Positions 126 to 29,744 of a DNA stretch of 35,851 bases are shown here, in pieces. This DNA comes from a virus: UHGV virus genome UHGV-0135983; one strand, 5' to 3'. The stretch's first letter is position 1. Each line of letters starts with the position of its first letter. The notes below the pieces were generated by a model, which was not told the origin of the DNA, did not search any database, and worked only from the letters and a program-made list of their open reading frames with translations. Position numbers and translations under genes: made by a program.

Positions 126-378
126 ATTTCACCACATCACGATAAACAGTACGGTAAATCACTTTGGCTTCAGCATTCGCCGTCGCCGCCTTCTGCTCGC
201 CTTCTGCTACCGCTTTTTCCTGTTTTGGCAGTCTGGCTTTAGCCTGGCTGTTCACTTGCTCAGAATGCGCGTACCAGCCTTTCAGATACCCCGCCCAGAA
301 AATACCAGCGGCCACCGCCAGCACTCCCCCAACGATCATCATTTTGGTTTTGCCGTTCACTCGTACAGCCCCCAGCAC
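1..378 (-). CDS. i-spanin (Rz-like)
   Basis: 125 aa, N-terminal TM segment (MMIVGGVLAVAAGIFWAGYL) then charged helical region; last gene of lysis cassette; GTG start with AGGAAAG upstream, ATG alternatives at 342/339. Confidence 0.7.
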   Translation of the reverse strand: MLGAVRVNGKTKMMIVGGVLAVAAGIFWAGYLKGWYAHSEQVNSQAKARLPKQEKAVAEGEQKAATANAEAKVIYRTVYRDVVKYVNDPNRTVCKFDSDAVQLRQRAIDAANAIPGFDEPAVPAK

Positions 379-893
379 GTTAGCGCACTTTCCTGCTCCC
401 GGCGGTCAACCTGCCCGTAACAGCCGTTTTTCTGTCCTTTGGTCAGTCGGCAATCCCGTCCACCATCGAAAACCCAGCGCCGGATCTCCGCGCACGCCCC
501 TTTGCGGTCGCCGGCATTGAGTTTGCGGTAGAACGTCGAGGGGAAGCATTTACCCGGACCGATGTTGTAGGGGCAGAAGCTGGCGATCCCGACCTTCTGC
601 GGCGGCGTCAGCGGAACGTGCACATTCTTTTCAACCCATGCCAGCGCCTTATCGCGCTCGATGGCGTTAACTTTCTTGCACTGAGCCTCGGTTGCTCTTT
701 GACCCTTAATGACACGCTTGCCATCTATAACGGTTACTCCGTGGCACAACGACCACACACCGCCGGGGTCAACAACGGCCACCAGCGCGTTACCTTCTTT
801 TTCGCTGATAAACTGATCGAACAGCACCGGCGCAGATGCACCGGCGGCCAGAAGCGCCAACATTGCGGCGCTGAACTTAGCTTTGTTGCTCAT
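357..893 (-). CDS. SAR endolysin, T4-lysozyme-like (phage 21 R type)
   Basis: Start taken at internal Met ([23 protein letters not shown], signal-anchor-release-like); E-x8-D-x5-T catalytic spacing ([22 protein letters not shown]); GACAEIRRW motif resembles P21 R. Confidence 0.85.
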
Positions 894-1107
894 AGTCCTG
901 TGCCTTCCGCCGGTCGTCTTTAATTTTGAAATACAGATTAGTGAGGTAGGTAAGCAACCCGAAAACAATACTTGCCAGAACGCCTATAGCCGCCCACTGG
1001 CTGGGGCTTACCTTGTCGAGAAGTTGCAGCAGCCAGAAGCTGCCGCTTACTGTGGATGTGATGTACGACGTTCCCGCCGCCACATCCGGTAGATTCTTCA
1101 TTCGCAT
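877..1107 (-). CDS. pinholin (phage 21 S-like class II holin), dual-start MRM
   Basis: 76 aa; [40 protein letters not shown] closely resembles S21; two TM segments; Met1-Arg-Met3 suggests antiholin/holin pair. Confidence 0.85.
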
Positions 1108-1183: not shown

Positions 1184-3304
1184 TTAAGCGTTGAAACCAC
1201 CGACTCGAACTTTTAGCGTAGAGAGGTCAACATTAGCAGTTATGTTTAATACACCACTCCCCGCTGAAATAGAGAATAAGCGCCGTCCGCCTGACGTTCC
1301 GCCCCCCGCCGGTGGAGTGGTATCGAGTTCACCTGTGATCGATATTGAAATGGTACCCTCACGGTTAGCAACGAGTAGCTCTAAACATTCAGCCCAGGTG
1401 AATTGTGCTGACGACCATGCGTCAATAAAAATACGCTGAGTAGTTCGGTTTGGAATTGTGATGGATTTCACTTCCCCTGTATTTACCAGCCCCTGAAAAC
1501 GGGTTCCGTAATCTATCCAGCTGATACTGTACCCTGGCGACCCCGTTGTGGGATTTTGAGATGTATACCAGGTCTGAGTCCGCACTCCTGTATGACTGAT
1601 TGACTGGAGAGGTCGAGCAAACTGATCGCGGTGGATGTATGCATTCGCCCGTATACCATTACTTTGCAGATCTATATCTGCTGTTCGGGGGTTAGGATAT
1701 AAACCAGATCCCCCCACATCAAACATCGCATAATGATTTGCTACGGCGGGTATCCAGCCATTTCTGTCGAGGTTCCTGAAAAAATCTTCAAAGGCAAGCC
1801 AGTACGATTGCTGATGCCCAAACAAATTGGGGTGAACAGTCTGTATTTCCGGCGTCCGATTGAATAATGCCGTTTCGCCATATTTAGCTACAGCATCAAA
1901 CCAGTATTTTTCAACATCAATCAGCACACAGCCCATTTCTACCGCGATTTGCCTGATGGCATCGTTTCCACGCAGGAAGCGAACACCTGCCTGTATGTTT
2001 ACACCATTCCATTCAAACGTGACGTTTGACTCTGCCGCTGAAGGGATAATGTCCTCATCGGAAACAGGAAGTGGAGAAAATGATGGCCACACCTGATTAA
2101 CAGACGGCGGCATGCTCCAGCTGTACTCAGCTATATTTGGATGCGGTGTGGTTGTCAAAACAACATCACCGCCAGCCTCCCTGACTAAATTAATCGCGGC
2201 TCTAAGACGCTGCTTAAATCCATTTTCATTGAACGTTTGCCCGGCATTATAGTTTGCCGTTGGGAAATCATTCATACCATAGACAAAGAGCGCGATATCA
2301 GGATATACACCTTCTGCGACGACGCCAGACCACTGATTTACAATGAAGTTATTTATCGACGAACCATTAGCCCCCCTGTTTTCGAAAGTAAGAGGATAAA
2401 TTCCTTGTTTGTTAAGAGTTTTATTTAAGTATTCGAAAAACTTAGCGATAGGGGCTTGCGTTGCAGGATCTGGAAGTGTTGCACCCACTTGCACTGAACT
2501 ACCGAAACCGTAAGCTCTGAACAAATCCTGATAGCCGGTAACGCCATGCCGATAAGCTGTTAATTTATTAATAAACTTTGGAAACAGAGCCTGTGATGAG
2601 CCAGACGCAGCACGAATAGATGCCTCTACCGTTCTTCCTGTTTCAGTAGCAACTAAGCCAGCACCGTCCTTCGAAGCCAGCTTAATAGCCAGATCTGCAG
2701 TTTGAGTCTGTCCGGCGATCGGTACCGGGTTTCCCTGGTCATTAAATCCCAGAAGCATATTTGAACGCGGAGCCACCGGATAAAGCATGCCTACCTGATT
2801 TTCAGGAACGCGTAACGTACGGGAAAAGTTTACCTGTTCAGTTTGGATAACGTATTTTTTTGTAGCGGCGTCCTGATTATCAACAGGGTCCAGTAAATTG
2901 CTAATTCTGTATCCCTGAGCATTAAACGGCCCACCGGACAGCGGGCGAGTTATTGCCAGTCCGAGTTCGAGGAATGCCCGTTGGATAGCCATCCAGATAC
3001 GGTCAAAGTCCTTATTAATAGTATCCGCCAGTAAGTCCCCGTTATCCTGATAATCCGTTAACCGGAACGTCGGAACAACACGCTGTAACATAACGACAGC
3101 GCCATTCGCCGGCGGCGTCAGAAAGGAGATATCACCACCATCTTTATTTCCAACCCCCGCGACGGAATACCCACTGGTAACAATATTTCCGTTTATGCTT
3201 ACCTGCAGATCGCTGGCACTAATGATATAGAACTGGTACGTAAAAACGGTTGTCAGGCCGTTAGCCGTATAGATGTTATAGGGTATCTGGTTCGGTACCG
3301 ACAT
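1184..3304 (-). CDS. tail fiber / tailspike with T7 gp17-like N-terminal domain and possible SGNH-hydrolase-like central domain
   Basis: Start chosen at MSVPNQIPYNIYTANGLTTVFTYQFYI (GGAG RBS; longer ORF to 3367 would overlap the upstream gene); N-terminus has the T7 fiber-type pattern; central GFGSS / YGMND / VHPN motifs resemble SGNH esterase blocks. Confidence 0.7.
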   Translation of the reverse strand: MSVPNQIPYNIYTANGLTTVFTYQFYIISASDLQVSINGNIVTSGYSVAGVGNKDGGDISFLTPPANGAVVMLQRVVPTFRLTDYQDNGDLLADTINKDFDRIWMAIQRAFLELGLAITRPLSGGPFNAQGYRISNLLDPVDNQDAATKKYVIQTEQVNFSRTLRVPENQVGMLYPVAPRSNMLLGFNDQGNPVPIAGQTQTADLAIKLASKDGAGLVATETGRTVEASIRAASGSSQALFPKFINKLTAYRHGVTGYQDLFRAYGFGSSVQVGATLPDPATQAPIAKFFEYLNKTLNKQGIYPLTFENRGANGSSINNFIVNQWSGVVAEGVYPDIALFVYGMNDFPTANYNAGQTFNENGFKQRLRAAINLVREAGGDVVLTTTPHPNIAEYSWSMPPSVNQVWPSFSPLPVSDEDIIPSAAESNVTFEWNGVNIQAGVRFLRGNDAIRQIAVEMGCVLIDVEKYWFDAVAKYGETALFNRTPEIQTVHPNLFGHQQSYWLAFEDFFRNLDRNGWIPAVANHYAMFDVGGSGLYPNPRTADIDLQSNGIRANAYIHRDQFARPLQSISHTGVRTQTWYTSQNPTTGSPGYSISWIDYGTRFQGLVNTGEVKSITIPNRTTQRIFIDAWSSAQFTWAECLELLVANREGTISISITGELDTTPPAGGGTSGGRRLFSISAGSGVLNITANVDLSTLKVRVGGFNA

Positions 3305-3321
3305 ATGGGGAACTCCGGCGG

Positions 3322-4932
3322 CTAATAATCTACGGCGACCATGTGATCGCCATCGTTTGGTTGCCAATGTTCCCGCGCCTGTGCGGTCGGAATCCCGACC
3401 AATTTACCTATACGTACCGGAGTTGAGCTGATAGCACCGGAGCCGGAGTCGATAAAGTCATCGGGCTGATTAGTCAGCGCCGGGTTAAAGTCTCGCATCT
3501 GGTCGTACATTGGGCCGTCGAGCACGTCGGTGTGCGCCCAAAGGAACCGCGACGACAGCGGCGCTTCGAAGGCATCGAGGATGCGTTTCTGTTTATTGGT
3601 CACGCTGAATTCTTCCCGGACGCCGCAACCTGTACCCTTCAACGCCTGAATCAGCAATTTGCCGGCGAAGCTGCCCGGGCCGTTCACCTCGACGCAAATC
3701 AGGGGGATCTGATACTTCAACACCAGCTCTTTAATCTGCATCACCTGACCGCCGGTGATTTTGTCGTTGTCGTCAAATTCTGCCAGTTCGCCCGTAAGCC
3801 CCTGGCAAACATGCCAGTACAGATGCCCGCGCGCGTCGGTGAAAATCAGAGAGAACGCCGAGGCGTCGGCCTTAACTTTGCCGGTGGCCACATCCCACCA
3901 GGCGACAGCACCAACAATTTGCGTCTGGCCAAGCCACATCGAACAGGAGCGGTTCGCGTATCGGATTTCAGGCTGAACGTTGTATTCTCGGATACGGTCA
4001 GGATCAAGACGAACCTCGCCAACCGGTTTACTGTGCAGCTGGTACTGACTGTCCCATTCGTTAATTGTGCGAGTCTCGCGGCGGCGCTTTGTCATTTCCT
4101 CCGGAGTGAATCTTTCCGGCCATTCACAATCGGCGTAACAGTCAACCGTGGTACCGGGAGCCTCGGCAAACTCGATACCATCATCGTTAAGACGATAATC
4201 AACACCTTCAACGAGCAGTCGCGCGCCAATGTGAATACCGACGAAAACATATTCAGGCCGGAACGGTAACGAGTAACGGCTAGCGGTAGCCTGTTTTTCC
4301 TCGATGCGAAATTCTTTGCCGAATAGTTTGATGGTCAGACAGTCGGCGCCCATAGATTCAACCTCATCGTAAAGGCTATCGTGGGTATGCGGCGTGCCGA
4401 TAAACAGCTTTCGCCCGCCGGGGACAAGAATGTGTGTCTGTTCACCCAGACGATAACGCAGCTTTTCCCGCGCCTCCGGCGTCTGGATATTCCGGGGCAC
4501 TTCTACGTCATCGTTCTGACATTCATCGGCACGGGCCGAGGTGACGTTAGAGAGGATCCCCTTTGCGTACATGCTGCCGTTACGCATATCCAGCGAGCCG
4601 TTAACCCACCATTGCTCAACGGTTCCCTGTCCGTCGGGTAGCATACCTTTGGTCAGCGGATGATTGCGTAAAACGTTCTGCGTATCGCGGCTGGTTTTGT
4701 ACGCGGTGCCGTCAGCTTCAGACTGGTGAAGAATGCGGTACTGGCGGTTCTGGTAATATCGCCATGCGTTATACACCGCCAGAATGGTGGATTTTCCGAA
4801 GCCACGGAAACAGCGAAGCACCGCGAGATCCCCGCGGTGTTCCAGCCAGTGGCAGGCTCGATAATGGCAGTCGGGAACCTCCCACCCCATCCGCTCCGCC
4901 CATATGATGAAAAAGGCGACGAATGAAATCAT
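3322..4932 (-). CDS. terminase large subunit (putative)
   Basis: 536 aa; Walker A-like RGFGKSTILA near N-terminus, acidic Walker B-like ADECQNDD; sits between a small putative TerS and the tail fiber. Confidence 0.6.
   Translation of the reverse strand: MISFVAFFIIWAERMGWEVPDCHYRACHWLEHRGDLAVLRCFRGFGKSTILAVYNAWRYYQNRQYRILHQSEADGTAYKTSRDTQNVLRNHPLTKGMLPDGQGTVEQWWVNGSLDMRNGSMYAKGILSNVTSARADECQNDDVEVPRNIQTPEAREKLRYRLGEQTHILVPGGRKLFIGTPHTHDSLYDEVESMGADCLTIKLFGKEFRIEEKQATASRYSLPFRPEYVFVGIHIGARLLVEGVDYRLNDDGIEFAEAPGTTVDCYADCEWPERFTPEEMTKRRRETRTINEWDSQYQLHSKPVGEVRLDPDRIREYNVQPEIRYANRSCSMWLGQTQIVGAVAWWDVATGKVKADASAFSLIFTDARGHLYWHVCQGLTGELAEFDDNDKITGGQVMQIKELVLKYQIPLICVEVNGPGSFAGKLLIQALKGTGCGVREEFSVTNKQKRILDAFEAPLSSRFLWAHTDVLDGPMYDQMRDFNPALTNQPDDFIDSGSGAISSTPVRIGKLVGIPTAQAREHWQPNDGDHMVAVDY
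3385..3402 (-). promoter_or_regulatory. conserved late-junction element copy 2 (GGTCGGAATCCCGACCAA), inside terminase 3' end, upstream of tail fiber
   Basis: Same invariant 11-mer; lies within the last ~27 codons of the upstream CDS, 84 nt before the fiber ATG at 3304. Confidence 0.5.
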
Positions 4933-5270
4933 TTTTTCCGCTGTTGTATGCGTTCGATAACTTCCTGTGCTGCACGTTCAGCGGCAGATACCTGTTGGCC
5001 CAGGCGGAATGCTTCATCGTCCGGATCCTCGCCGGGTTTAGGCGTTCCCCCGCGCGTATGCATGCCAATCAGCGAATGGACTTTTACCAGCAGGGTTAGC
5101 GATGCGGCCGCATTCTTCTTATGCCAGTACCGATCGCCGCGTTCCTGTTTGGTGTGCTTTGTGACTTCCTTCCCTGCCCCCGGCCAGTTATCCGGATCGG
5201 CTTCTTCAAGAACTACATCGGTGAGCTTATCGCTAAGAGCGGTCAGGCGGGTTTTGTAATCTGAATGCAT
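4929..5270 (-). CDS. terminase small subunit (putative, by position)
   Basis: 113 aa, immediately upstream of and overlapping the putative TerL start; no recognisable motif. Confidence 0.35.
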   Translation of the reverse strand: MHSDYKTRLTALSDKLTDVVLEEADPDNWPGAGKEVTKHTKQERGDRYWHKKNAAASLTLLVKVHSLIGMHTRGGTPKPGEDPDDEAFRLGQQVSAAERAAQEVIERIQQRKK

Positions 5271-5317
5271 AAAAAAGCCCCGTGGTTATCCATAGGGCTA
5301 TAATGTGCCGGGCTAGA

Positions 5318-5333
5318 GGTCGGAATCCTGACT
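5318..5333 (-). promoter_or_regulatory. conserved late-junction element copy 3 (GGTCGGAATCCTGACT), upstream of putative TerS
   Basis: Same invariant 11-mer, 45 nt upstream of the ATG at 5270. Confidence 0.5.
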
Positions 5334-5404
5334 ATTGCATATGCAGCGATGTACGTATAAAACTAGCCGACATTAATATAATCATTTTCATTCAGAGGCT
5401 CCCT

Positions 5405-5842
5405 GTGAAAACTTTATTCCCCTTAATACTGTTTATCGTAACTTCTACCGTTTGCGCCAAAGAAGTTAAATATGACTTTCCTCCAGATGGGGAAATGGCA
5501 AAATCACTCAAACCAGAAATTGTTGGCGTGGCTAATTATGAAATGGTCAATAGAAGCGTGCGCTTAAAAGCTTTAGATGTTGGTGAAAAAAATGTTTCTC
5601 TCCTGGTAGTCATAGGTGCTACCGACACCAGAAAACCCGTTACTCAAGCTAACATCCCTGACAAACAATCAATCTCATTAACTAAACAGCAAATTGTGAA
5701 CAAATATTGTGCACCATTCGGGTATGGCAATTGGTACTTTGATGCCTTCAAACAGCGGGGTGTAAAACTGCACTATTACTTTTACTCGGCAGTAGACACC
5801 CCGTTATTTACATTCACGGTAAATAAATCTGATTGCGATTAA
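5405..5842 (+). CDS. secreted hypothetical protein (moron, opposite strand to virion genes)
   Basis: GTG start with AGAGG RBS 7 nt upstream; N-terminal signal peptide VKTLFPLILFIVTSTVCA; AT-rich relative to flanks; TATAAT-like boxes at 5299..5304 and 5377..5382; stop overlaps the convergent internal virion gene stop. Confidence 0.5.
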   Translation: MKTLFPLILFIVTSTVCAKEVKYDFPPDGEMAKSLKPEIVGVANYEMVNRSVRLKALDVGEKNVSLLVVIGATDTRKPVTQANIPDKQSISLTKQQIVNKYCAPFGYGNWYFDAFKQRGVKLHYYFYSAVDTPLFTFTVNKSDCD

Positions 5843-11943: not shown

Positions 11944-12396
11944 TTAAACCTCCATCGAATAAAGCAGGCCTGTTTGCTGCAGGCCGAGACGCGAATACAA
12001 CTGGCCGGTGCGTTCTGCGTGCACCCCAGTGGTGATCCCCATGTTGATAACGGCGGCGCCGTGCTCTTTTGACCAGTCGATAAAGGCGCGTGCCAGTCGC
12101 GGCCCGGCGCTGCCGCCTCGATGTTCTGGCGCGACAAATAAGCCGTATTCAAAAGCCATCAACTGGCGGGAGAAAAATTGCTCTGCGATACCGCCGCCAA
12201 GCCAGCCGATCACATGCCCGTCTTTTTCAGCGACCAGCACACAACCAGACGGCGAATAAATCAGGCTCTGCGCCAGTTCTGCACATTTATCCGCGTCAAA
12301 CGGCGAATTTAGCGAGTAACGGGACTCGAGATACATCCGGGTCCCCAACTCGATAAGCGCCGGGATATCCCCGGCTGTGGCGTTACGAATCATCAT
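11944..12396 (-). CDS. GNAT-family N-acetyltransferase
   Basis: Start taken at MMIRNATAGDIPALIELG, overlapping the tail tubular B stop as TAATG; acetyl-CoA motif A-like VAPEHRGGSAGPRLARAF; longer 216-aa ORF would overlap the upstream gene by ~200 nt. Confidence 0.7.
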   Translation of the reverse strand: MMIRNATAGDIPALIELGTRMYLESRYSLNSPFDADKCAELAQSLIYSPSGCVLVAEKDGHVIGWLGGGIAEQFFSRQLMAFEYGLFVAPEHRGGSAGPRLARAFIDWSKEHGAAVINMGITTGVHAERTGQLYSRLGLQQTGLLYSMEV

Positions 12397-14384
12397 TAGC
12401 CCCCGTTGCTGGTAAATACGATGACAATGGCGAGAAGATGAAATGGCAGCGGCTGGCGCTGCTGAATAGTCAGCGTGTCTTCTCCGCGCTCCCAGCCAAG
12501 TTTTCCCCAGTAGTGATCGCCGGTGAACAACGGCGCCGGCTGGTTGAGGATTTTTGGCCCGAACGTGCGGAACGGGATCACCTGGCCGTTGCACTCTGCG
12601 CCAGTGGTTTCGAGGAAACGCATAGTGACTTCACTTGTGCGCTTACGGGTGTTCTGCGTGGTGCCTTCAGACGTGGCGACTTCAGGTGTCAGCGTGGTAA
12701 TGGTTGTTTCAAAGTGCAGGCCGATTTCGACTTTGTAGGCTTTGCGCGATAGCGTGATTTGGCCGGATGAAACGACCGCCTGCGGCATCACTGAGCCATC
12801 AGCGACAATATCGACGGTCTCGCCTTCGAGGTGCGACAGTCCGCCCCATGTCGTTGCGCCAGTATCACTGGAGCCCGTCACGGCTGCATCGGTGTACAGG
12901 GCGTTACTGAACATTTCGACATAGCGAACGGTCTGGCCGTTGACCGTACGGCGCACAATGGCGTACACCACATCGTCAGTCGCTGAGGGAATAGTCGCTA
13001 CGGACTCAAACGCACCACTGGTGATCTGTCGTGACCACGCGACAACGTTCTGCACCCGGTCGATAGCCATTGTCACCATTACGCCATCATTGCGAACCAG
13101 CCAGGTAAACGCATCAGGTTGCTGCTGATACGCCATATCGATCACACCGCCTTCTGTGATGTGTTCCGCCAGTACAGTCATATCGTTGGCCGAGTAAGCT
13201 ACATAGCTGTCGGGGTCATAGGCGACAGCGTAGAGCTTACGGCCAGAACGCTGGACGAACATAATTTCGGTACCGACGCGCACCGGCCGGATCCCGTTGC
13301 ATCCGTACGGGCTGGGATTTTTTACCGAAATATTGGTAGGCGTAATCGCCGCATCATTGCCGGCGGTGATGGTGAACTCGCCGCCGTACGTCAGCGCAAT
13401 TAGCGTATTCATCTGCGCGAGGTGAACAATCGGGTTAAGCTGGTCAGAAGAGAGCGTAAAGCTGATCGCGTCGTCGTCATCGGTTCCCAGCTCGAAAGAG
13501 AGGTATACGCCCGATTCGCTCCACCAGATAGTTTGCGGATACTGCGGCGAACCAGCCAGAACCAACCGCTGCTGGTAAAGCGTTACCGCACCCGGGTATC
13601 CAAATTCATCCGTCCAGACAGAATCCTCGCGAGTCCAGGCGCCCGGCGATGCTGCCTGCGTTGCGCTTAAATCGGTGCGAATGGTACCGACAGCAACCTG
13701 TGCACTGGTTACGCTCTTGATCAGCACCAGACCGCTGTTAATCCTTACGTACGAGCCCACATCTTCAGGCACCCAGCCATCACCGGTGAGCGTTCCGTCT
13801 CCGCTTTCTGGCGGTTCATCATCGCTCAGTGTCAGCGTGATTTCCGAGCCGACGAATTCTTTCACTGATGGCTTGCACCACTTTTGCGGTGTGTCGCGTA
13901 CTTCGTCGAAGGGTTCAACGATAAACGGCGCCGGTTCCAGAACCCAATCGGTTTGCCCGCGTCGCTGCAGGCGATACGGTTTAACGGCCTGATGCACCAG
14001 AAACATGGTATCGGCGCCCTGAACGTAATTTACCGATGGCAGCATGTCAGAGGTGTACGGGCTGGCGATTTCATACGGCGTGTTATCGTCGTTCACCAGC
14101 TGCTTACCGTCCTGGTAAATTCGCAGATAGCCGTCGCCAAATTCCAGAATGTACGCCTGCGTGCGGTTAAAAACGTACGGAATGAGGCGGGATTTTTTAT
14201 CACCGTACTTTGTGGCCGCTACATACTGCGAACCGGGACGACGCATTACCCCGCCCTGTACCACGACCACGCTATTTTCCAGCGTCTTCGCGCCGTTCGC
14301 ATAGCGATCGATATCCACGCGCCCCATAAGACGTGGGGAAATTTCGCCGGCGGTGAAGTTGGTTTTAATCAGACTGGCGCGCAT
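12396..14384 (-). CDS. tail tubular protein B (T7 gp12-like)
   Basis: Start at MRASLIKTNFTAGEISPRL (GAGG RBS), similar in pattern to the gp12 N-terminus; follows tail tubular A. Confidence 0.7.
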   Translation of the reverse strand: MRASLIKTNFTAGEISPRLMGRVDIDRYANGAKTLENSVVVVQGGVMRRPGSQYVAATKYGDKKSRLIPYVFNRTQAYILEFGDGYLRIYQDGKQLVNDDNTPYEIASPYTSDMLPSVNYVQGADTMFLVHQAVKPYRLQRRGQTDWVLEPAPFIVEPFDEVRDTPQKWCKPSVKEFVGSEITLTLSDDEPPESGDGTLTGDGWVPEDVGSYVRINSGLVLIKSVTSAQVAVGTIRTDLSATQAASPGAWTREDSVWTDEFGYPGAVTLYQQRLVLAGSPQYPQTIWWSESGVYLSFELGTDDDDAISFTLSSDQLNPIVHLAQMNTLIALTYGGEFTITAGNDAAITPTNISVKNPSPYGCNGIRPVRVGTEIMFVQRSGRKLYAVAYDPDSYVAYSANDMTVLAEHITEGGVIDMAYQQQPDAFTWLVRNDGVMVTMAIDRVQNVVAWSRQITSGAFESVATIPSATDDVVYAIVRRTVNGQTVRYVEMFSNALYTDAAVTGSSDTGATTWGGLSHLEGETVDIVADGSVMPQAVVSSGQITLSRKAYKVEIGLHFETTITTLTPEVATSEGTTQNTRKRTSEVTMRFLETTGAECNGQVIPFRTFGPKILNQPAPLFTGDHYWGKLGWERGEDTLTIQQRQPLPFHLLAIVIVFTSNGG

Positions 14385-14385
14385 G

Positions 14386-14949
14386 TCAGAACCTCGATTC
14401 GTACGTTGGATAGCCGCCAAGCTCTTCCGGCGGGTCTTCCTGACCATCTACCGCTTTCGCCTGCTTCAGCAGTACCAGCGATTCCTGGGCGATACTGTCG
14501 CGCAGACTGGTAGAGCCGGTGACGGCATAGGCCAGCTTTGCCTGCATCATCATTTCTGCCACATCAACGAGCGCGGCATCCCAGGTGGATTCGTCTTCGT
14601 TGCGGAACACATAACGCAGCTTCAGTACCTGCACGTTCGCCAGCAGCCGGTTTCCTTCGACGCGGTACGGGATATCGTCGTAAGGTTCCCCAACGGACAG
14701 AACGCGAAGAAGATCACCGGGTAGTGCGAACTGAAAGCGGAAACCGAATACCGGTGCCGTACTGACAGGAGAGAGAACCACACGTTTTACAACGCAGTTC
14801 CACGGATGCACGCGCAGTAGCTTATTGCGTACGGTGGGATAAAGGTTTGAGCACAGGCGGGCGTGATCGGTGTTTTCGTCGAAACTGTTAATCGGGTGAG
14901 CACCGAGCGCCAGCAGTGCGTTAGAGCAGATAGAAATACTGTCAGCCAT
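14386..14949 (-). CDS. tail tubular protein A (T7 gp11-like)
   Basis: 187 aa, directly downstream of capsid gene and terminator. Confidence 0.6.
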   Translation of the reverse strand: MADSISICSNALLALGAHPINSFDENTDHARLCSNLYPTVRNKLLRVHPWNCVVKRVVLSPVSTAPVFGFRFQFALPGDLLRVLSVGEPYDDIPYRVEGNRLLANVQVLKLRYVFRNEDESTWDAALVDVAEMMMQAKLAYAVTGSTSLRDSIAQESLVLLKQAKAVDGQEDPPEELGGYPTYESRF

Positions 14950-15008: not shown

Positions 15009-15920
15009 TTATGCTACGAAATCGATGGCGACTACTTTGTTTTCCGCTGCGCGGCCTGCACCATAGGACGCATCGACGGAAATCTGAATGGTGTTGTTTT
15101 TATCGCGGCGCGGGCCGATATCGACGTTGTACTCTTCGCCGGTACCAAAATGCACAGCAGATTTACACCAGGCTGCGGCGGTTTTGGTGGTTACAGCGGG
15201 ATCACCTGCTGAAGCAGAATCCAGTTTTTCATACGCCAGCCACTTAAAGCCCAGCCAGTTACCAGACACTGCGCCTTCCTGCAGCATTTTCACTGCCATA
15301 AAGTCGGCGCTGGTCAGCGTGGTATCGCTGAGGATTTGGGTCAGCATGTCGGCGTTGTAGGTGATATACAGCTCTTCACCGTTCTGCTCGTCACACTCGT
15401 TACGGCGGAACATGGCTTTCGCGGCGATCAGCTTCGCTTTGGTCATCCCTGTACCGCCAGCAACGATTTTCTGCGATGCAGGCAAGGCAACTGGAGCGTA
15501 CGCGCCAGTATTGGAGGTTTTACGCAGAACGGTATCGAGCAGCGCGCGATAAATAACATCGTCTTTTTTGCGGTTGGATGCGGCCAGCGTCAGCTGCAAA
15601 TATGGCCCCTGCGGGTCAGCCAGCAGTTTGCGCAGGTCGCGCTTTTCCACTGGCACGAATACGCCATAGTCAGCCATCAGCGCATTACGGGTGCCGGCAT
15701 CAGGCAGATCCCAGACGGTATCACCGAAACGCTCGGTGATCTGGGTCATTTCGATGGTACCCATATCGTTGATGGTGAACGACGCACCGGTAATATTGCC
15801 ACGGTCGTAAACAGCAGCTTGCAGGCGGGAATCCTTCTGCTGTGCGGCAATTTCGAAAGAATCATGGAACTGCTGAACAAACGCAGCGGTGATCATGTTC
15901 TTAGCGGTATCAAATGACAT
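15009..15920 (-). CDS. major capsid protein (T7 gp10-like)
   Basis: Start at MSFDTAKNMITAAF with GGAGTGA RBS; 303 aa; pattern ELYITYNADMLTQIL resembles gp10 VFYCDPDSYSAIL. Confidence 0.8.
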   Translation of the reverse strand: MSFDTAKNMITAAFVQQFHDSFEIAAQQKDSRLQAAVYDRGNITGASFTINDMGTIEMTQITERFGDTVWDLPDAGTRNALMADYGVFVPVEKRDLRKLLADPQGPYLQLTLAASNRKKDDVIYRALLDTVLRKTSNTGAYAPVALPASQKIVAGGTGMTKAKLIAAKAMFRRNECDEQNGEELYITYNADMLTQILSDTTLTSADFMAVKMLQEGAVSGNWLGFKWLAYEKLDSASAGDPAVTTKTAAAWCKSAVHFGTGEEYNVDIGPRRDKNNTIQISVDASYGAGRAAENKVVAIDFVA

Positions 15921-16068
15921 AACAATCACTCCAGAAAGTATCGCCTGCGGGGTATCGGTTTCCCGGCCCAAATCAGCACAATGCGGTTGGCGCTGGCGCA
16001 TTGCGGGAAAATCAGGTATCCGGCGTCCCCGCCGGGCTGGTTGTGGAGTGATTGTTAGCGAGGAGAGC

Positions 16069-17964: not shown

Positions 17965-18184
17965 CGTCGTTTACTCCATCTACACGGTTGATTTGCATCA
18001 GAATGAAATCGAGCACGGCACGTTGTCCGGCCCGGTAACAGGTTTCGCGGTCGCCCTCGGCGCCGCCGGGAACGTATGCCGCACGCCCGAATCGGCGCGT
18101 TAAATCATCCAGTACCTGCGTGCCGCCCGGCATTTCCTCGAAAATGCGTTTGTAGTCCGCCGGTGATACTTGTTTAGTAGCCAT
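17951..18184 (-). CDS. hypothetical small protein between portal and scaffold
   Basis: 77 aa ORF, start overlaps portal stop. Confidence 0.4.
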   Translation of the reverse strand: MATKQVSPADYKRIFEEMPGGTQVLDDLTRRFGRAAYVPGGAEGDRETCYRAGQRAVLDFILMQINRVDGVNDDVED

Positions 18185-19806
18185 TAACCCCCCGCTACTC
18201 GTTGGCCCAGTGCTGCGCCTGCCTGCTGCCCTGCGGCGGTTGCCGCTTCGCTACCTGCCTGCATCATTAGCGCTTGCCCTGCCTGTTGCTGCTGCGCCTG
18301 CTGGCGCTGCTGGCGAAGTTGCTCGACGGCATCAGACGAGCGAATGACTTTCGCCGGTACGCCCAGCGCATCCGCTATCACGCGGGTCGCTTCGTCGGTG
18401 TCGATTAGGTCGGTGACTTCTGGTGATACCTGCGCCAGATTGGCCACGTTCGCGCCAAGGCGTTCAATAGCGGTGACGTTTTCCAGCTGCTGCGCGCGGG
18501 CAAGCGGCGAGATATAGCGCACGTTGAAATTGGCGTTTTGCAGGCTATCCGGCGCTGGCGGGAATACACCGGCGCGGAATGCCAGACCGAAACAGCGTTC
18601 TACCAGTGGTTGCAGGTATTCAGCCTGGAATCGGCCATAGACCGGGCCGAGCAGCTGGCGGATCAGCGCGACACGCACATGCACTTCGGTAGCGGTCATT
18701 GCCGGGCCGTCCTGCGGTTGCAGCTGGTCGGCCATCATGATTTTGCGGATCGACGCCTGCAGGCGTTCTTCTGCAGTAAACGCCACGTTGAAATCGGCGC
18801 CGGTGAGCAACGGTTTCATGCTGTCTACGCTGTTCGCCACGATGATGCGGCGCGGGCCGACCTTGACCGTGCGCGGATTGAGTACGCCGTCATCTTCGGC
18901 AATCCACATCCCGGCGATAGCCAGATCCTGCGCGGCTTTCTCCATGCGCTTCGTTTCGTTCAGCTCTTTGCAGTCCGGCAGCGCGTCGTATACCGGGCCG
19001 ATACCGTACGGCGTGCCGGGGATTTTCATCCAGCGCGGTACGCAGCAGGGGAATTCGTGATAGCCGGATTCGCGCACGATGAGCTTGCCGCTCACCTCCA
19101 CGTTGTACGATGCAAAGCGCAGGTTTTTAGCCAGGCGCGCATTCACCACGTAGTTTTCACGCGGGAAAATGCAGTGCAGGAAGTCGAATTTGTCATCCGG
19201 CTTTTTGGCGGCTGCGTCGCGAATCTTCTTGCTGACCTTATCCGCGCCGAATTCTTTAATCGCCTGCTCTGCGGTGAGCTGGTAGCGGCGATAAATCGTG
19301 TCCACGATGCCGTCGCGACGGGTGGAAGTGACAAAGCACTGCGCCAGCGGCCACTGCTGGAACGAGAATCCGCCCTCTTCGCGGTCTTCGTCGATGTACA
19401 GCGCAAACCAGCCAGCACACACCACATCGAGATTCACCTCGTAGCCTTCGGCGTCGAAATTGGCGGCGTGGATGTTTTCCCATACCAGCGTTGCGCAGGT
19501 GGACAACCACGCGGCGGCATCATCCGGCAGCGATTCGCTGTCGAGGTTCAGCCACTGCGCGTTTGCCGGGGTCATGCCGGACATGAGAGCAGACGCCAGC
19601 ATGCGGGCGCTGTCGGTGGCCGTGCCGTCAAGCAGCCGTGCCACCTTCGATTTCGCGCTCTGTGCGTCCAGCACCTCATCGGATAGCCCCGCGCCGCGCA
19701 GCGGATAGGTGTAGTCGTAGCATTCCCGCCAGACACTTTCGTGCACCTGTCGGTTGGCTTTCAGCGTATCGGCACGCTTAACCAGCTTTACGGCGAGTTC
19801 ATCCAT
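18184..19806 (-). CDS. portal / head-to-tail connector (T7 gp8-like)
   Basis: 540 aa (T7 gp8 is 536 aa); position upstream of scaffold and capsid. Confidence 0.75.
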   Translation of the reverse strand: MDELAVKLVKRADTLKANRQVHESVWRECYDYTYPLRGAGLSDEVLDAQSAKSKVARLLDGTATDSARMLASALMSGMTPANAQWLNLDSESLPDDAAAWLSTCATLVWENIHAANFDAEGYEVNLDVVCAGWFALYIDEDREEGGFSFQQWPLAQCFVTSTRRDGIVDTIYRRYQLTAEQAIKEFGADKVSKKIRDAAAKKPDDKFDFLHCIFPRENYVVNARLAKNLRFASYNVEVSGKLIVRESGYHEFPCCVPRWMKIPGTPYGIGPVYDALPDCKELNETKRMEKAAQDLAIAGMWIAEDDGVLNPRTVKVGPRRIIVANSVDSMKPLLTGADFNVAFTAEERLQASIRKIMMADQLQPQDGPAMTATEVHVRVALIRQLLGPVYGRFQAEYLQPLVERCFGLAFRAGVFPPAPDSLQNANFNVRYISPLARAQQLENVTAIERLGANVANLAQVSPEVTDLIDTDEATRVIADALGVPAKVIRSSDAVEQLRQQRQQAQQQQAGQALMMQAGSEAATAAGQQAGAALGQRVAGG

Positions 19807-20961: not shown

Positions 20962-21264
20962 TTAAATTCTGCATAAGCGTAATTCCTTTACCTCGCTAGT
21001 GACCTGTTCGAGCAATTCAGTCTCCGTTCCGTAGTTTTCTTCCCATGTTTTTTGCCCTGCGTGGATAGCTACGCCGTGTCCGCCGGTTCTGTGGTGTGGA
21101 GGGCAAAGCGGGAGAGTTTCTTTGTGGTCGGCGCGCTGGGCTATGCCCTGCCCTTTGCGGATATGGTGAACCTCTGCAGGTGTAGCGCCGTAGCCAAGAT
21201 TTCTGCATACGACGCAACCCAGTGATGCAACGTCTTCCAGCCAGCGTTTATCGTCTTTGGTCAT
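20962..21264 (-). CDS. HNH/zinc-binding nuclease-like protein (Ref/DUF968-like)
   Basis: 100 aa with CVVC...HHIR...CPPHH Cys/His motifs. Confidence 0.5.
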   Translation of the reverse strand: MTKDDKRWLEDVASLGCVVCRNLGYGATPAEVHHIRKGQGIAQRADHKETLPLCPPHHRTGGHGVAIHAGQKTWEENYGTETELLEQVTSEVKELRLCRI

Positions 21265-21275
21265 GGCGATATTTC

Positions 21276-21872
21276 TCAGGCGGCATAGCTGAATAATTGC
21301 GAGGCTGCGTTTTCTGCTGCCTGCTGATTGGGGAATGTGCGGAATAAAATAAAATTCCAGAGGACGTCTAATACGGATTTATACAGCTGAGAAAATTCTA
21401 CATCGTCCATTTTTGCGAACGATATGGATTTGGGTTCCTTGCGGGTAGTGCCATCAGGCATCTGGTATTCGGTATAAAAACCGGCTTCGATAGTTACCCA
21501 GGAACGGAACGCTTCAAACGATTTAACCGCACTAATATTTCCGGCGCGTTTTTCTGCTTCATCGCGGAGATACTGATCAGCCAGTTCCTGCAATGTGTCG
21601 GCATGCCCGGCATAGTGGGCCACCAGCTGCACGTAACCACGAACCAGTTTTTTATCGGCTGGCGATATTGCACCGCCGGAAGGTTGCCAGTAATCAAATC
21701 CCAGATTCAGGAGGGCAAAAAATTTGCGGTGGAACGCCGGGTTTCTTGCCTGCTTAAAATCCGCATACAGAATACCGCCCATGCGAACTTTTTTTTCTAA
21801 GAATTCGCGGGCGTCAGGCGTTGCTGGAATTAATACACCGCCAGGTGCTTTTACAAAAGAATACTGCGCCAT
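21276..21872 (-). CDS. hypothetical phage protein (nin-region-like)
   Basis: 198 aa ORF, no motif recognised. Confidence 0.4.
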   Translation of the reverse strand: MAQYSFVKAPGGVLIPATPDAREFLEKKVRMGGILYADFKQARNPAFHRKFFALLNLGFDYWQPSGGAISPADKKLVRGYVQLVAHYAGHADTLQELADQYLRDEAEKRAGNISAVKSFEAFRSWVTIEAGFYTEYQMPDGTTRKEPKSISFAKMDDVEFSQLYKSVLDVLWNFILFRTFPNQQAAENAASQLFSYAA

Positions 21873-21940
21873 TGGGTTCCCCTTTAGCGCAGCAATTGTT
21901 CAGAATTACATGGTGTTGGGTGTTCAGGCCAACGGGGTAA

Positions 21941-22201
21941 TTATAGCATATTGCCGTCTGGTTTGATAATGGTATAACCAGTCAATTTAGCTAATTCAAA
22001 CAACGCGTTAAGTGTCGCTACGTGCTCATCGGAATGGACGATTCTCGTCTTCTTAATTTTGCCCTTTTTACATGTTATCAGCACATCACCATCATCGGGG
22101 AGAAGGTCTCCTGCATCTTTCTTATCAATCACTACCTCTCCCTCGCTGATAATACTGTATAAATTCACAGTATATATACTACCAACTGACAGTGAGCGCA
22201 A
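21941..22201 (-). CDS. hypothetical small protein (AT-rich)
   Basis: 86 aa ORF in lower-GC segment. Confidence 0.35.
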   Translation of the reverse strand: MRSLSVGSIYTVNLYSIISEGEVVIDKKDAGDLLPDDGDVLITCKKGKIKKTRIVHSDEHVATLNALFELAKLTGYTIIKPDGNML

Positions 22202-22686: not shown

Positions 22687-23520
22687 TCATGCTGCACGCT
22701 CCTGTTTCTGTTGTGCTGCAGGGTTAAGCCAGAGGCATTCAGTACGGACTTTCGTACCGCGCCCGGCACTGATGCGCGATGCTTTCTCGGTCTTCGCCCA
22801 GCCGGATAGCATGTCGTTGTAGACATCAGTGTCGTAACCGCTAATCATCACCATGCCTTTCATCGTTCTGGACACAGCGAGCAATTGCTCATGCCCTTCA
22901 ACGGTCATTTCATGGTTGTAATAACGATTTTTCTGCACTCGTGTTTCCGGCATATATGGCGGATCGATGTAATGCAGCGTCGTTTCTGCGTCGTGGGCGC
23001 GCATTACCGCCAGAGCGTCTTTGTTCTCGATGATGACTCCTTGAAGGCGCTGACAGACAACAGCGAGATTAGCCGGGTAACGCTCCCATAGATGCGCCGC
23101 CGTAGCGTATTTGCGTTTGCTGTCGCTGCGGAAGCCGGATTGACCGCCGATACCTGCGGCAGAGCCGAACCCCATACAGGCACGAACCACCATGCGGCGG
23201 GCGCGTTCGATAGGGTCAGTGGCTGGTTGCTGAGCGTGACAGAACTCATCGCGTGAATACGGGGTCAGGCAACAGGCATCCTGCAGGCGCTGGTTTAATT
23301 CAGGGTCGCGCAATACACGAAACAGGTTCACCACCTCGCCGTCGAGATCGTTGTACACCTCTGAATAGCTACGCGCTTTTTGTAGCAATACGCCAGCAGC
23401 CCCGCCGAACGGTTCGACATAGCAGACGTGTTCCGGCATCTGCTCGATAATCCAGTGTGCCAGTCGGAATTTCCCGCCGTGATATCTGATTACAGGATGC
23501 CTGATTTTTTTTTCAATCAT
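22687..23520 (-). CDS. Dam-type DNA N6-adenine methyltransferase
   Basis: 277 aa; YHGGK, FGGAAGV (AdoMet motif I) and DPPY (motif IV); A9 homopolymer in codons 3-6. Confidence 0.85.
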   Translation of the reverse strand: MIEKKIRHPVIRYHGGKFRLAHWIIEQMPEHVCYVEPFGGAAGVLLQKARSYSEVYNDLDGEVVNLFRVLRDPELNQRLQDACCLTPYSRDEFCHAQQPATDPIERARRMVVRACMGFGSAAGIGGQSGFRSDSKRKYATAAHLWERYPANLAVVCQRLQGVIIENKDALAVMRAHDAETTLHYIDPPYMPETRVQKNRYYNHEMTVEGHEQLLAVSRTMKGMVMISGYDTDVYNDMLSGWAKTEKASRISAGRGTKVRTECLWLNPAAQQKQERAA

Positions 23521-23699
23521 TGATCATCACCCCATTCGTCATAAAAAAAATCATCAACTCGCTTATATGCCTCGTAAGCGGCTTCAATCTCCATTTCTGT
23601 GATATCGAATGATTTACCATTTAATTCGACGATTAATTCCAGCGCGTCGCCCCAATCTTCGAGCGACGCGGTTCTTTTGGTTGCGCTAAAATCTGCCAT
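23517..23699 (-). CDS. hypothetical small acidic protein
   Basis: 60 aa, coupled between the two methyltransferase genes. Confidence 0.4.
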   Translation of the reverse strand: MADFSATKRTASLEDWGDALELIVELNGKSFDITEMEIEAAYEAYKRVDDFFYDEWGDDQ

Positions 23700-24290
23700 C
23701 TATGCTACCTCCCCGATATATTCTGCAATGCCCGGCAGCAGCGCCACCGCTGGCGATTCACACTGGTTGCCCCACACGTCGAAACCATGCGACGACTGGC
23801 GGGCGAATAACTCAATACGCGGTACATCGCCCAGCAGCTGCACCAGCTTTTCGCGCACGATATCCGGTTTGCGCGAATGCTCCAGACGCGGGGCCGTGAA
23901 TGACTGAACGATCCCGGCATCCAGCCGGGCGGGTAATTTCCCCTGCACAGCGAAAAGGCAATCTTCACTGTTCGCCCTGGTCATATGGCCCATTCCTATG
24001 GCCAGTTTGTCGGTCTGCCGGCTGTAGCATTTGTTCCACGTAAAGCCTTTCATGGTCATCAGGCGGAAGCCCCACGCCTCGACTACTCGCAACGCCTCCA
24101 GCGGCTGAGTCGGTACCCACCACATAGCCAGCAGGCAGTTTTCAGCGGCCAGTTCCCAGACCGGAAGACGGCAGATATCGAGCACAGTCATGGTCTGGTA
24201 TTTATGCCCGACGCCACGCTCGCCATCTTTGGCTTTATCGCGGTACGTCCAGGGCGGATCGCAATAAATTAAAGTGTATTTTTCATTCAT
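23700..24290 (-). CDS. MT-A70-family DNA N6-adenine methyltransferase
   Basis: 196 aa; IYCDPPW catalytic motif; start overlaps upstream stop as TAATG. Confidence 0.8.
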   Translation of the reverse strand: MNEKYTLIYCDPPWTYRDKAKDGERGVGHKYQTMTVLDICRLPVWELAAENCLLAMWWVPTQPLEALRVVEAWGFRLMTMKGFTWNKCYSRQTDKLAIGMGHMTRANSEDCLFAVQGKLPARLDAGIVQSFTAPRLEHSRKPDIVREKLVQLLGDVPRIELFARQSSHGFDVWGNQCESPAVALLPGIAEYIGEVA

Positions 24291-24817
24291 TATTTCGAAT
24301 CCTTAATAATATTGGCAACACGATTAAATGATTCATACGTTTCAATGTTTCTTGAGAAATTAAGGAGCCTTGTCTTACCAGATGGATAAACCCGACCTGA
24401 ATAAGTCTTGTTCTGCGTTCTAAATTCAATTGTTTGTTTTATAGAACCAATATTTTTATCACTAACAATCTCACTAGCAGCCATAAAACCCACTTTTTCC
24501 TCTTCAATTACAACGAACGCGTAAAAGTCACAGGAACCATAATTAGTTGCTCTGCAAGTTCCTTTCCCTGTTCTGGTGCTGAACCGAAAAACATTCTTCG
24601 ACTTTCCATAGTCGCGCATACACAAGGTTGTTCTGACTTGCCCTCTTAATAAATACTCGCCAGATTGAACAACTATATCGTATGGCAATCCTTGGTCTGA
24701 GGGGAAACATATAAAACCCTGCTTACTGAGTTTAAATATGGCGTAATACTCACCACATTTGCCAAGTTCTAACTCGCTCGAAAAATCGCTTATGTTTATA
24801 TCAATAGTCCCATTCAC
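24290..24817 (-). CDS. AT-rich hypothetical protein with Hjc/PD-(D/E)xK-like N-terminal pattern
   Basis: 175 aa; G-x-x-GE...LxxxGF...YDIVV...QVR spacing resembles archaeal-type Holliday-junction-resolvase fold with ExK replaced by QVR; GC well below flanks. Confidence 0.5.
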   Translation of the reverse strand: MNGTIDINISDFSSELELGKCGEYYAIFKLSKQGFICFPSDQGLPYDIVVQSGEYLLRGQVRTTLCMRDYGKSKNVFRFSTRTGKGTCRATNYGSCDFYAFVVIEEEKVGFMAASEIVSDKNIGSIKQTIEFRTQNKTYSGRVYPSGKTRLLNFSRNIETYESFNRVANIIKDSK

Positions 24818-25924: not shown

Positions 25925-27331
25925 TTAAAATGCATCGGTATTGAATTTCTCAGAGTATTTACGGGGTTGTTTCCGGGGTTTCGCGGCCTCCAGTTGGATA
26001 CGTGTTTTCTCTTTGCCAACATGCTGATCCATTGACAGAAAGTGTCCGTTTTTAAATTCCTGATAAATAATTGCTCCTGCGGCGCTGAAGCGGCTTTTAC
26101 CCAGGATAATTTCAGCGACGCCAGCCGCCGGGCTTTCCGGGTTGTAAACCTCATCGCGGTACAGAAACATGATGCTGTCGGCGTCCTGCTCAATGGATCC
26201 GGAATCACGCAGGTCTGACATGACCGGGCGACGCTGAGCCGCAGGGCGGGAATCGACGGCGCGGGAAAGCTGGCTAAGCGCGAACGTCGGCGTATGCAGG
26301 CGCATAGCCATAGTTTTTAGGTTTCGGGATATGTGGGCGATCGCAAGGTCGTTACGCTCTGCCTTCGGTTTTTTAATCAGGCCAACGTAATCGACAACGA
26401 TCATCGCCAGATGCGGATACCGGCGCTTATGCGTTTCGGCAACGGCGCGGATTTGCTCAATCGTCAGATCGGTAGCATCAACGATCCAGATATCGCGCCC
26501 GTTCATGGTCTCCATGGCCGCTGTAAAGCGCGCCCAGTCCTCGTCCTGCATATCGAGGGGATTACGCAGGCGTGACACTGACATGTTTCCAGAACCCGCC
26601 AGAGAGCGTTCTACGATTTGCGCAGCGGCCATTTCCATGCTGAATATCAACGCGCCACCGCCGGCAGCGGTAACACCATCGACAATCTTCAGCGCAAATT
26701 CTGTTTTACCCATACCCGGACGCCCAGCGACGACAATCAAATCCTGCAGGTTAATTCCGCCGGTCGCATCGTCCAGTTCCTCGATCCCGGTTTTCAGGTT
26801 TCGGGTGCCCTCTTCGCCGTCCATGCGCTTCTGCATGGTTTCCATGTACACCGGCAATAATTCGCTCATGTGTACCGGCTGCACGTCGCCAGTGTCGCCG
26901 GTCATGTCCAGCAGCTGCGCAACGGCAGTTTCGACAACCTGATCGCGCTGTTCCTGGTTTATCGCATCACGAATACCATCCGCACCATCCTGCAGTAATT
27001 GCGCGATGGTTCTGCTTCGCCAGGCCTTAACCATTTTTTTGGCGTAGCCTTTGAGATTGACAATCGATGTCGGGAATTTGCAAATATCGGCGAGATTGGC
27101 CAGCGTCCCCTGTCCGCCAATGGCTTCGCTAATGTACATCATGTCAATTAAGCCGCCGCTCAAGGCCTGCGCTTTGATCACACCGTAAATCTGCCTGTAG
27201 TATGCGACGCTGAAAGCTTCGCTCGGAGTGCTGGCAATCACATCAAAGGCGTCTGGCGTGGCGCCACCGTTCATCAGGCAGCCAAGAACCAGACATTCCA
27301 GCTCCTGAGTGGAATACATCATCTGCATCAT
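25925..27331 (-). CDS. replicative DNA helicase (DnaB family)
   Basis: 468 aa; Walker A GRPGMGKTEFALK; DnaB-like C-terminal blocks; overlaps initiator stop. Confidence 0.85.
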   Translation of the reverse strand: MMQMMYSTQELECLVLGCLMNGGATPDAFDVIASTPSEAFSVAYYRQIYGVIKAQALSGGLIDMMYISEAIGGQGTLANLADICKFPTSIVNLKGYAKKMVKAWRSRTIAQLLQDGADGIRDAINQEQRDQVVETAVAQLLDMTGDTGDVQPVHMSELLPVYMETMQKRMDGEEGTRNLKTGIEELDDATGGINLQDLIVVAGRPGMGKTEFALKIVDGVTAAGGGALIFSMEMAAAQIVERSLAGSGNMSVSRLRNPLDMQDEDWARFTAAMETMNGRDIWIVDATDLTIEQIRAVAETHKRRYPHLAMIVVDYVGLIKKPKAERNDLAIAHISRNLKTMAMRLHTPTFALSQLSRAVDSRPAAQRRPVMSDLRDSGSIEQDADSIMFLYRDEVYNPESPAAGVAEIILGKSRFSAAGAIIYQEFKNGHFLSMDQHVGKEKTRIQLEAAKPRKQPRKYSEKFNTDAF

Positions 27332-29330: not shown

Positions 29331-29744
29331 ATGGACATGAAAAAATTGACCTTTAACGATCGCATTACATCGAGACGGAAAGAGCTTGGCTTAACCCAAC
29401 AGCAGCTCGCCGATGCCGTTGGCATATCTGGCGTAAGCGTCTACAAGTGGGAAGCAGGTATTAACACCCCAAAAGGGCAAAATCTGTTTTCTCTCGCTGA
29501 GGCTCTTCGTTGCTCTCCGACATGGTTACTTAACGGAACCGATAGCGATGAACCGTTGAAGGCGGAAGACCTTTTACCTCGGTTAGATGATCGCCAAAAG
29601 CTATTGCTTGATCTTTTTGACTCCCTACCTGAATCAGAAAAAGATAGACACATCAATGAGTTGAAAGATAAAGTTGACGGATTCCAGCGATTGTTTGATG
29701 AGTTACTTTTGGTAAAAAAGAAAAAAAACACTCCAAAAAAATAA
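29331..29744 (+). CDS. CI/RacR-like repressor (HTH_XRE, no S24 peptidase domain)
   Basis: 137 aa; HTH LGLTQQQLADAVGISGVSVYKWEAG; possibly leaderless from the ATG at 29337. Confidence 0.75.
   Translation: MDMKKLTFNDRITSRRKELGLTQQQLADAVGISGVSVYKWEAGINTPKGQNLFSLAEALRCSPTWLLNGTDSDEPLKAEDLLPRLDDRQKLLLDLFDSLPESEKDRHINELKDKVDGFQRLFDELLLVKKKKNTPKK

Follow-up and report, generated by a model that had tools for sequence, protein, structure and literature searches.

The tail fiber encoded by virus genome UHGV-0135983 almost certainly contains an SGNH hydrolase domain, and we consider it likely that this fiber is a working polysaccharide O-acyl esterase used for adsorption, with activity, substrate, and adsorption role inferred from fold and conserved residues. 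The DNA analyzed, hereafter the window, is the whole stretch of 35,851 nucleotides, and the fiber is a receptor-binding protein (RBP) of 706 amino acids (aa) encoded near one end of it. An original prediction, made without database searches, had proposed a T7-type N-terminal anchor followed by an SGNH esterase-like domain on the basis of three motifs, GFGSS (aa 266–270), YGMND (aa 342–346), and VHPN (aa 490–493), all of which are present exactly in the translation. As far as the fold and the conservation of catalytic residues are concerned, this reading is supported by the analyses below. The features of the gene are as follows.

1184..3304, minus strand: complete tail fiber/RBP gene (translation of 706 aa plus TAA)
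2846..3280, minus strand: T7 gp17-type N-terminal virion anchor, aa 9–153 (Pfam PF03906, E 4.5e-11, 43.1 bits against a cutoff of 25.2)
2588..2845, minus strand: neck or linker, aa 154–239, which holds a module-exchange junction at aa ~200–230 (BLASTP)
1760..2587, minus strand: SGNH/GDSL hydrolase domain, aa ~240–515 (Pfam, AlphaFold2 (AF2) model, fold searches)
2495..2509, minus strand: block I GFGSS, aa 266–270 (G266, G268, S269, and S270 invariant in 42 sequences)
2360..2380, minus strand: block II N309-R-G-A-N-G314-S315, with the oxyanion-hole Gly (N309, G314, and S315 invariant in 42 sequences)
2267..2281, minus strand: block III YGMND, aa 342–346, with N345 as the oxyanion-hole Asn (invariant in 42 of 42)
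1985..2149, minus strand: family-specific insertion after strand β4, aa ~386–440, opening with an invariant P-H388-P (AF2 model and alignment)
1826..1843, minus strand: block V Q488-T-V-H491-P-N, with the catalytic His (H491-P-N493 invariant in the family alignment)
1187..1639, minus strand: C-terminal all-β domain, aa 556–706 (strands only in the AF2 model, pLDDT about 82–92)

SGNH fold and catalytic residues

Sequence profiles, a structural model, and two fold searches all identified the central region as SGNH. Lipase_GDSL_2 (PF13472; ECOD 2007.5.1) matched aa 291–498 with 37.9 bits against a curated cutoff of 32.9 (E 3.3e-9), and a profile of 42 homologues (down to 40% identity), searched against all PDB sequences, retrieved only SGNH esterases, namely LAE5 (5jd3, E 0.0017) and YxiM (2o14, E 0.017). 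When the whole fiber was searched against the PDB with phmmer, only the N-terminal anchor was matched, to the N-terminal parts of Klebsiella and Acinetobacter tailspikes whose structures have been solved (28lx, 9m4d), and the LAE5 match was non-significant; NCBIfam returned no family. The anchor that had been proposed from the sequence is itself borne out by PF03906, which scores above its cutoff.

The AF2 model covers aa 183–706, was built with an alignment of the same 42 homologues, and has a mean predicted local distance difference test score (pLDDT) of 80.4, with 80–92 in the catalytic region and values <50 in three short segments, one in the neck (aa 197–202) and two in the linker (aa 520–532 and 544–550). 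It consists of alternating strands and helices over aa ~240–515, forming the three-layer α/β/α fold with a parallel central sheet that is expected of an SGNH enzyme, followed by a poorly defined linker and the all-β C-terminal domain. Structural comparison by Foldseek against the PDB returned SGNH carbohydrate esterases as top matches: the acetyl-mannan esterase CEX (6hfz, E 1.6e-9), the acetylxylan esterase Axe2, LAE5, and rhamnogalacturonan acetylesterase (RGAE). In the BFVD fold search, the homologue from phage K30 matched the model at E 1.8e-65, and other structural neighbors included a Vibrio phage SGNH protein and the tail spikes of Pectobacterium phages PP99, PPWS4, and Possum. Structure prediction and profile search thus gave an SGNH α/β/α fold with conserved Ser, Gly, Asn, and His, rather than a β-helix or other non-SGNH fold devoid of catalytic residues. 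For the C-terminal domain, Foldseek aligned 135 columns locally (E 1.7e-5) with gp49, the tailspike of Acinetobacter phage Fri1 (6c72), and a role in distal polysaccharide binding or trimerization may be envisaged from the model.

The putative active site can be followed block by block. Block I lies at the C-terminal end of the first model strand (aa 262–267) and reads GSS, not GDS, with G268-S269-S270-V271-Q-V-G274 in the place of the classical GDSL motif G-D-S-L-x-x-G. The nucleophile is probably S270, because it is in this GDSL register, follows the first strand, and lies in the GSSVQ onto which an hhalign comparison places GDSIT of gp63.1, an RBP of Escherichia coli phage G7C. The same non-significant alignment sets NCSVSG of gp63.1 on NRGANG and GWND on GMND. 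Block II, a candidate located between GFGSS and YGMND, was absent from the motifs first listed. In the profile alignment with the esterase LAE5, GMND of the fiber is paired with GIND, and QTVHPNLLGHQ with DRIHPNLAGHQ. Blocks III and V are separated by 148 residues; the intervening insertion is modeled as a long segment with little regular secondary structure and then a β-hairpin, and its H388, W406, and P407 are invariant in the family alignment. Position 488 is Gln in 86 and Glu in 4 of 90 module-bearing homologues, and Asp in none. Since this position is always occupied by a hydrogen-bonding residue, the alignment suggests that residue 488 still orients H491, presumably in a Ser-His-Gln geometry.

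Proposed role and competing explanations

We propose that this protein is the single tail fiber of a temperate podovirus integrated in Klebsiella oxytoca and equipped with a T7-like virion module. Its N-terminal ~155 residues would dock the fiber, presumably as a trimer, on the T7-type tail. Residues ~240–515 would then act as an SGNH-fold serine esterase, with S270 as nucleophile, H491 as general base, and an oxyanion hole to which the block I Ser (through its backbone NH), G314, and N345 (through its side chain) contribute. Gln488, in the place of the triad Asp, would probably hydrogen-bond the His, resulting in a Ser-His dyad assisted by Gln, while the C-terminal β-sandwich would likely add polysaccharide binding or trimer stability. 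At cell contact, the enzyme would strip capsular or O-antigen polysaccharide of O-acetyl groups, or of similar small acyl groups, while leaving the chain uncut, and this deacylation would let the virion bind, release, and move towards the outer membrane, as for G7C gp63.1, Possum gp66, and PP99 gp55. The original prediction had offered O-antigen deacetylation as an example; in Klebsiella, the target could as easily be the capsule.

Several observations weigh against this proposal. The PF13472 match begins at profile position 21, and block I itself lies outside it. The canonical triad Asp is absent, with Gln488 standing three residues before H491. The hhalign comparison between the fiber and gp63.1 is not significant (E 0.14, probability 0.4%), and the two Klebsiella prophage proteins of the SGNH class that have been assayed fall in other SGNH subfamilies, with different sequences. 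The evidence fits capsule, O-antigen, or another ester alike as substrate, and no assay of the fiber or of any member of PHROG 18703, the family to which it belongs, was found in the literature.

The absence of the Asp speaks for an alternative that we regard as unlikely, in which the SGNH domain would be a "pseudo-esterase", catalytically dead or very slow, whose sole function is lectin-like binding of acetylated polysaccharide. Mutation of the triad acid lowers activity in SGNH enzymes. One such mutant, RGAE D192N, exists as a deposited structure (3c1u, among the Foldseek matches), and in the fiber family 86 of 90 homologues have Gln in place of the Asp, which none of them retains. However, homologues spanning 40–100% identity show no variation at the Ser, the His, or the Gly and Asn of the oxyanion hole, which disfavors this alternative because such residues should disappear from a module used for binding alone, and four homologues have Glu, a competent acid, at position 488. 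Nor is the Asp-to-Gln change a strong argument against activity, because SGNH enzymes with a Ser-His dyad and no Asp are active, including many CE2 esterases and the Streptomyces esterase SsEst (Anderson et al. 2022, PMC9487903).

Still less likely, in our estimation, is an esterase or lipase acting on a non-polysaccharide target, either the acyl chains of lipid A or phospholipids, or the O-acetyl groups of peptidoglycan during penetration. The phage SGNH RBPs characterized to date all deacetylate surface polysaccharide (PMC9569702, PMC13123978), and the best-scoring fold matches of the fiber are carbohydrate acetylesterases and gp63.1. Its SGNH domain is located in the distal fiber, far from peptidoglycan, and the phage already has an internal virion protein matching endolysin and lytic-tail-protein PHROG families. 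An SGNH-fold O-acyltransferase of the PatB, OatA, or AlgX type, which would add rather than remove acyl groups, appears very improbable: matches of this type score well below the esterases, and the fiber is an extracellular virion protein with no obvious acyl donor. We know of no phage RBP of this kind. Finally, a conventional β-helix depolymerase tailspike with SGNH motifs by chance can be dismissed, for although homologues with the same anchor do bear β-helix domains (P0104, PF13229), these have only the N-terminal anchor in common with the fiber, no Pfam β-helix family matched it, the AF2 model is α/β and then a β-sandwich, and neither fold search supported a β-helix.

Returning to the esterase reading, a possible though doubtful extension of it is that the PHROG 18703-type subfamily represents a virion-esterase clade distinct in mechanism or substrate, in which Gln (rarely Glu) has been fixed in place of Asp and a ~55-residue P-H-P insertion lies next to the active site. 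If so, these proteins may be deliberately slow "bind, cut, release" enzymes, or may act on an ester other than the O-acetyl groups studied to date, and this could explain the spread of the cassette among phages of Klebsiella, E. coli, Serratia, Brenneria, and even Vibrio independent of capsule type.

More broadly, the fiber belongs to a published and common class of phage RBPs, and its homologues are already annotated as SGNH hydrolases. It would provide a K. oxytoca example of the recently recognized rule that in temperate Klebsiella phages, esterases that modify polysaccharide often take the place of depolymerases. This rule bears on phage host-range prediction and on capsule or O-antigen typing that takes no account of acetylation, and depolymerase-centered screens would miss a fiber gene such as this one. 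The C-terminal 500 aa form a portable cassette, sharply delimited by the junction at aa ~200–230, which may be useful in RBP engineering, and the family-wide Asp-to-Gln change poses a simple and testable question on SGNH catalysis.

Module exchange, gene boundaries, and prophage context

Judged from its alignments, the fiber is a fusion of two mobile modules that meet at aa ~200–230. In BLASTP searches, the alignment starts at query aa 200–209 for 47 of the 63 homologues that have only the C-terminal module, and the 28 anchor-only homologues end at aa 213–281 (median 227). The anchor (aa 1 to ~230) shares 70–78% identity with the N-terminal regions of tailspikes from other Klebsiella prophages (P0092–P0119), whose distal parts are quite different and include β-helix depolymerases, and 32–53% identity with those of the epsilon15, phiV10, TL-2011b, and Yersinia YeP4-6 spikes. 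In E. coli prophages, the distal cassette (aa ~201–706) follows a P22 head-binding domain (85% identity); elsewhere, it follows PF12571 and PF18668 domains or, in Klebsiella phage KL01, another T7 anchor. It also occurs as an anchor-less protein of ~510 aa and in the large (~145 kb) Escherichia and Klebsiella phages AV124 and VLCpiM5b. GC content at third codon positions (GC3) is 0.41 in the distal cassette (1187..2689) and 0.63 in the adjacent terminase gene (3325..4932), a difference that fits horizontal import of the cassette, and the GC3 break coincides with the module junction.

The fiber is 100% identical over 706 aa to K. oxytoca B7L13_08670, and aa 183–705 match the PHROG 18703 "tail fiber" family at E 7e-287. 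The mechanically called open reading frame (ORF) has 21 extra codons (3305..3367, minus strand), beginning with a TTG at 3367 and running into the end of the terminase gene. The ATG at 3304 is favored as the start because it is preceded by GGAG at ~9 nt, lies 18 nt past the stop of the terminase large subunit, and yields a length of 706 aa, equal to that of the identical protein and within the 699–721 aa observed for all full-length homologues; the TTG extension is thus supported by neither homologue lengths nor Shine-Dalgarno position.

By gene content, the window is a near-complete temperate podovirus prophage in which a T7-like virion module is joined to regulation and replication genes of lambdoid style. 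All genes listed below are encoded on the minus strand, except the integrase and the repressor.

34832..35851, plus strand: integrase, cut by the window end
29331..29744, plus strand: CI-like repressor
27328..28317, minus strand: helix-turn-helix (HTH) replication protein
25925..27331, minus strand: DnaB helicase
22687..24290, minus strand: two adjacent DNA methyltransferase genes, D12-class Dam-like (PF02086) and MT-A70 (PF05063)
18184..19806, minus strand: T7-type portal (PF12236)
15009..16001, minus strand: capsid
14386..14949, minus strand: tail tubular protein A (PHROG 394)
12396..14447, minus strand: tail tubular protein B (PHROG 376)
11944..12594, minus strand: GNAT acetyltransferase ORF (PF00583 over aa 107–204; PHROG 1249)
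3322..4932, minus strand: TerL, preceded by TerS and followed by the fiber gene
877..1107, minus strand: holin
357..968, minus strand: endolysin

The lysis region, with holin and endolysin, also encodes an Rz-like spanin. The fiber gene is located between TerL and holin and follows the genes for the T7-like tail and the internal virion proteins, so that the SGNH domain sits in a virion-attached fiber encoded within the structural module. Since the portal and tail tubular proteins A and B are encoded in the window, the T7-type anchor has its expected docking partners. Three internal virion proteins are encoded, including the one with the endolysin-like match mentioned above. No other fiber gene was seen in the window, and none of the ORFs scanned was recognized as a phage RNA polymerase.

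The host is taken to be K. oxytoca from the identical chromosomal protein. Among isolated phages, the closest relatives judged by the fiber N-terminus are the 35-kb Yersinia phages YeP4-6. A megablast of the fiber gene against 50,697 phage records gave no match, and homologues in phage records were therefore reached by tblastn; the same search with 19.7 kb of adjoining prophage returned short patches only, which leaves no cultured close relative for annotation transfer. One such region of ~1.2 kb (~20972..22136; DUF1367, DUF968, and HTH genes) displays 82% DNA identity to Stenotrophomonas phages BUCT708 and BUCT709, from an unexpectedly distant host, and the remainder of the 19.7 kb is almost devoid of close DNA matches in these records.

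Three further loci were noted. The GNAT ORF lies inside the virion structural operon, between the tail tubular protein B and internal virion protein genes; its listed GTG start overlaps tubular protein B by ~200 nt, and the true start is probably internal. The enzyme may be virion-delivered or a moron. GNATs are cytoplasmic N-acetyltransferases, not polysaccharide O-acetyltransferases, and a tie between this enzyme and the fiber substrate was considered and rejected, as nothing connects the two. After the methyltransferase genes, 24290..24817 has a weak, sub-threshold match to a PD-(D/E)XK nuclease family. Finally, a 186-aa ORF (5282..5842, plus strand) lies between the small terminase gene and the gene for a 964-aa internal virion protein, on the opposite strand to these. 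It has no Pfam or PHROG match, contains a hydrophobic signal-like stretch (LFPLILFIVTSTVCA), and has a local GC content of ~0.47 against 0.54 in the structural region. This ORF resembles a moron and possibly encodes a secreted or periplasmic lysogenic-conversion or exclusion protein.

Comparison with known systems

An analysis of 8,105 Klebsiella prophages (Otwinowska et al., PLoS Biol 2026, PMC13123978) found SGNH among the most prevalent enzymatic RBP domains, and six predictors of capsule type in its genome-wide association study were SGNH proteins. Two recombinant SGNH fibers from that work, 164_08-KL2 and 174_38-KL55, hydrolyzed p-nitrophenyl acetate and depolymerized 0 of 118 capsule types (PMC13123978). 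Like these, the fiber described here is a Klebsiella prophage RBP in which an SGNH domain replaces a β-helix depolymerase; unlike these, which have other N-terminal architectures, it has Gln at the triad-acid position and a K. oxytoca host. The block I context of 164_08, in the portion of its sequence available, is DGQSLSNG and differs from that of the fiber, and fiber peptides (YGFGSS, YGMNDF, and others) were not found in the supplementary tables of PMC13123978. The same class of SGNH RBPs has been reported by Kolupaeva et al. 2025 (PMC12115436), and SGNH tailspikes have been described explicitly in Przondovirus (2026 preprint, 10.64898/2026.05.12.724579). In the literature on SGNH RBPs, nothing specific to the PHROG 18703 subfamily was found, KpV289 included.

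Among characterized phage proteins, the closest in structure to the catalytic domain of the fiber is G7C gp63.1 (PDB 4QNL), an SGNH RBP that deacetylates the O-antigen, according to its citation in PMC13123978 and PMC9569702. The two are structurally similar at 12% identity. Gp63.1 belongs to an N4-like phage and is attached via gp66, whereas the fiber is attached via its T7 anchor, and block V of gp63.1 has the canonical D-T-T-H-P where the fiber has Q-T-V-H. Deacetylation of O-polysaccharide was shown by nuclear magnetic resonance for Possum gp66 and has been reported for PP99, both Pectobacterium phages (PMC9569702). The PP99 tail spike and Possum gp66, also SGNH RBPs, ranked 4 and 15 among BFVD matches to the model (E 6.5e-11 and 6.5e-9); they are ~10–11% identical to the fiber and differ in hosts and substrates, and Possum is N4-like. 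An SGNH-domain RBP that deacetylates surface polysaccharide has likewise been demonstrated for Acinetobacter phage Aristophanes (PMC8471582).

The non-phage SGNH carbohydrate acetylesterases RiCEX (6HFZ), Axe2 (3W7V), RGAE (1DEO), and LAE5 (5JD3) have the fold and four catalytic blocks in common with the fiber, and CEX also has its two-domain layout of SGNH and β-sandwich. In contrast to the fiber, they are soluble metabolic enzymes with the canonical block V Asp and have neither a virion anchor nor the ~55-residue insertion after β4.

True homologues of aa ~182–706, at 49–65% identity, are found in PHROG 18703, namely KpV289 gp46, KpV766, F8R4T7 of Escherichia phage K30, and Klebsiella phage KL01. 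These second RBPs of Przondovirus (KpV289 among them) and K30-type phages share both the SGNH and the C-terminal domain of the fiber; F8R4T7 is named "SGNH hydrolase-type esterase domain-containing protein" in UniProt, several fiber homologues are named "SGNH/GDSL hydrolase family protein" at NCBI, and PF13472 is precomputed for all of them. In KpV289 (1253..5512 of that genome), the cassette is a separate anchor-less protein, gp46 (511 aa), encoded directly after the T7-anchored first fiber gp45, which points to a branched two-RBP arrangement in that phage, whereas here cassette and anchor are fused into a single fiber.

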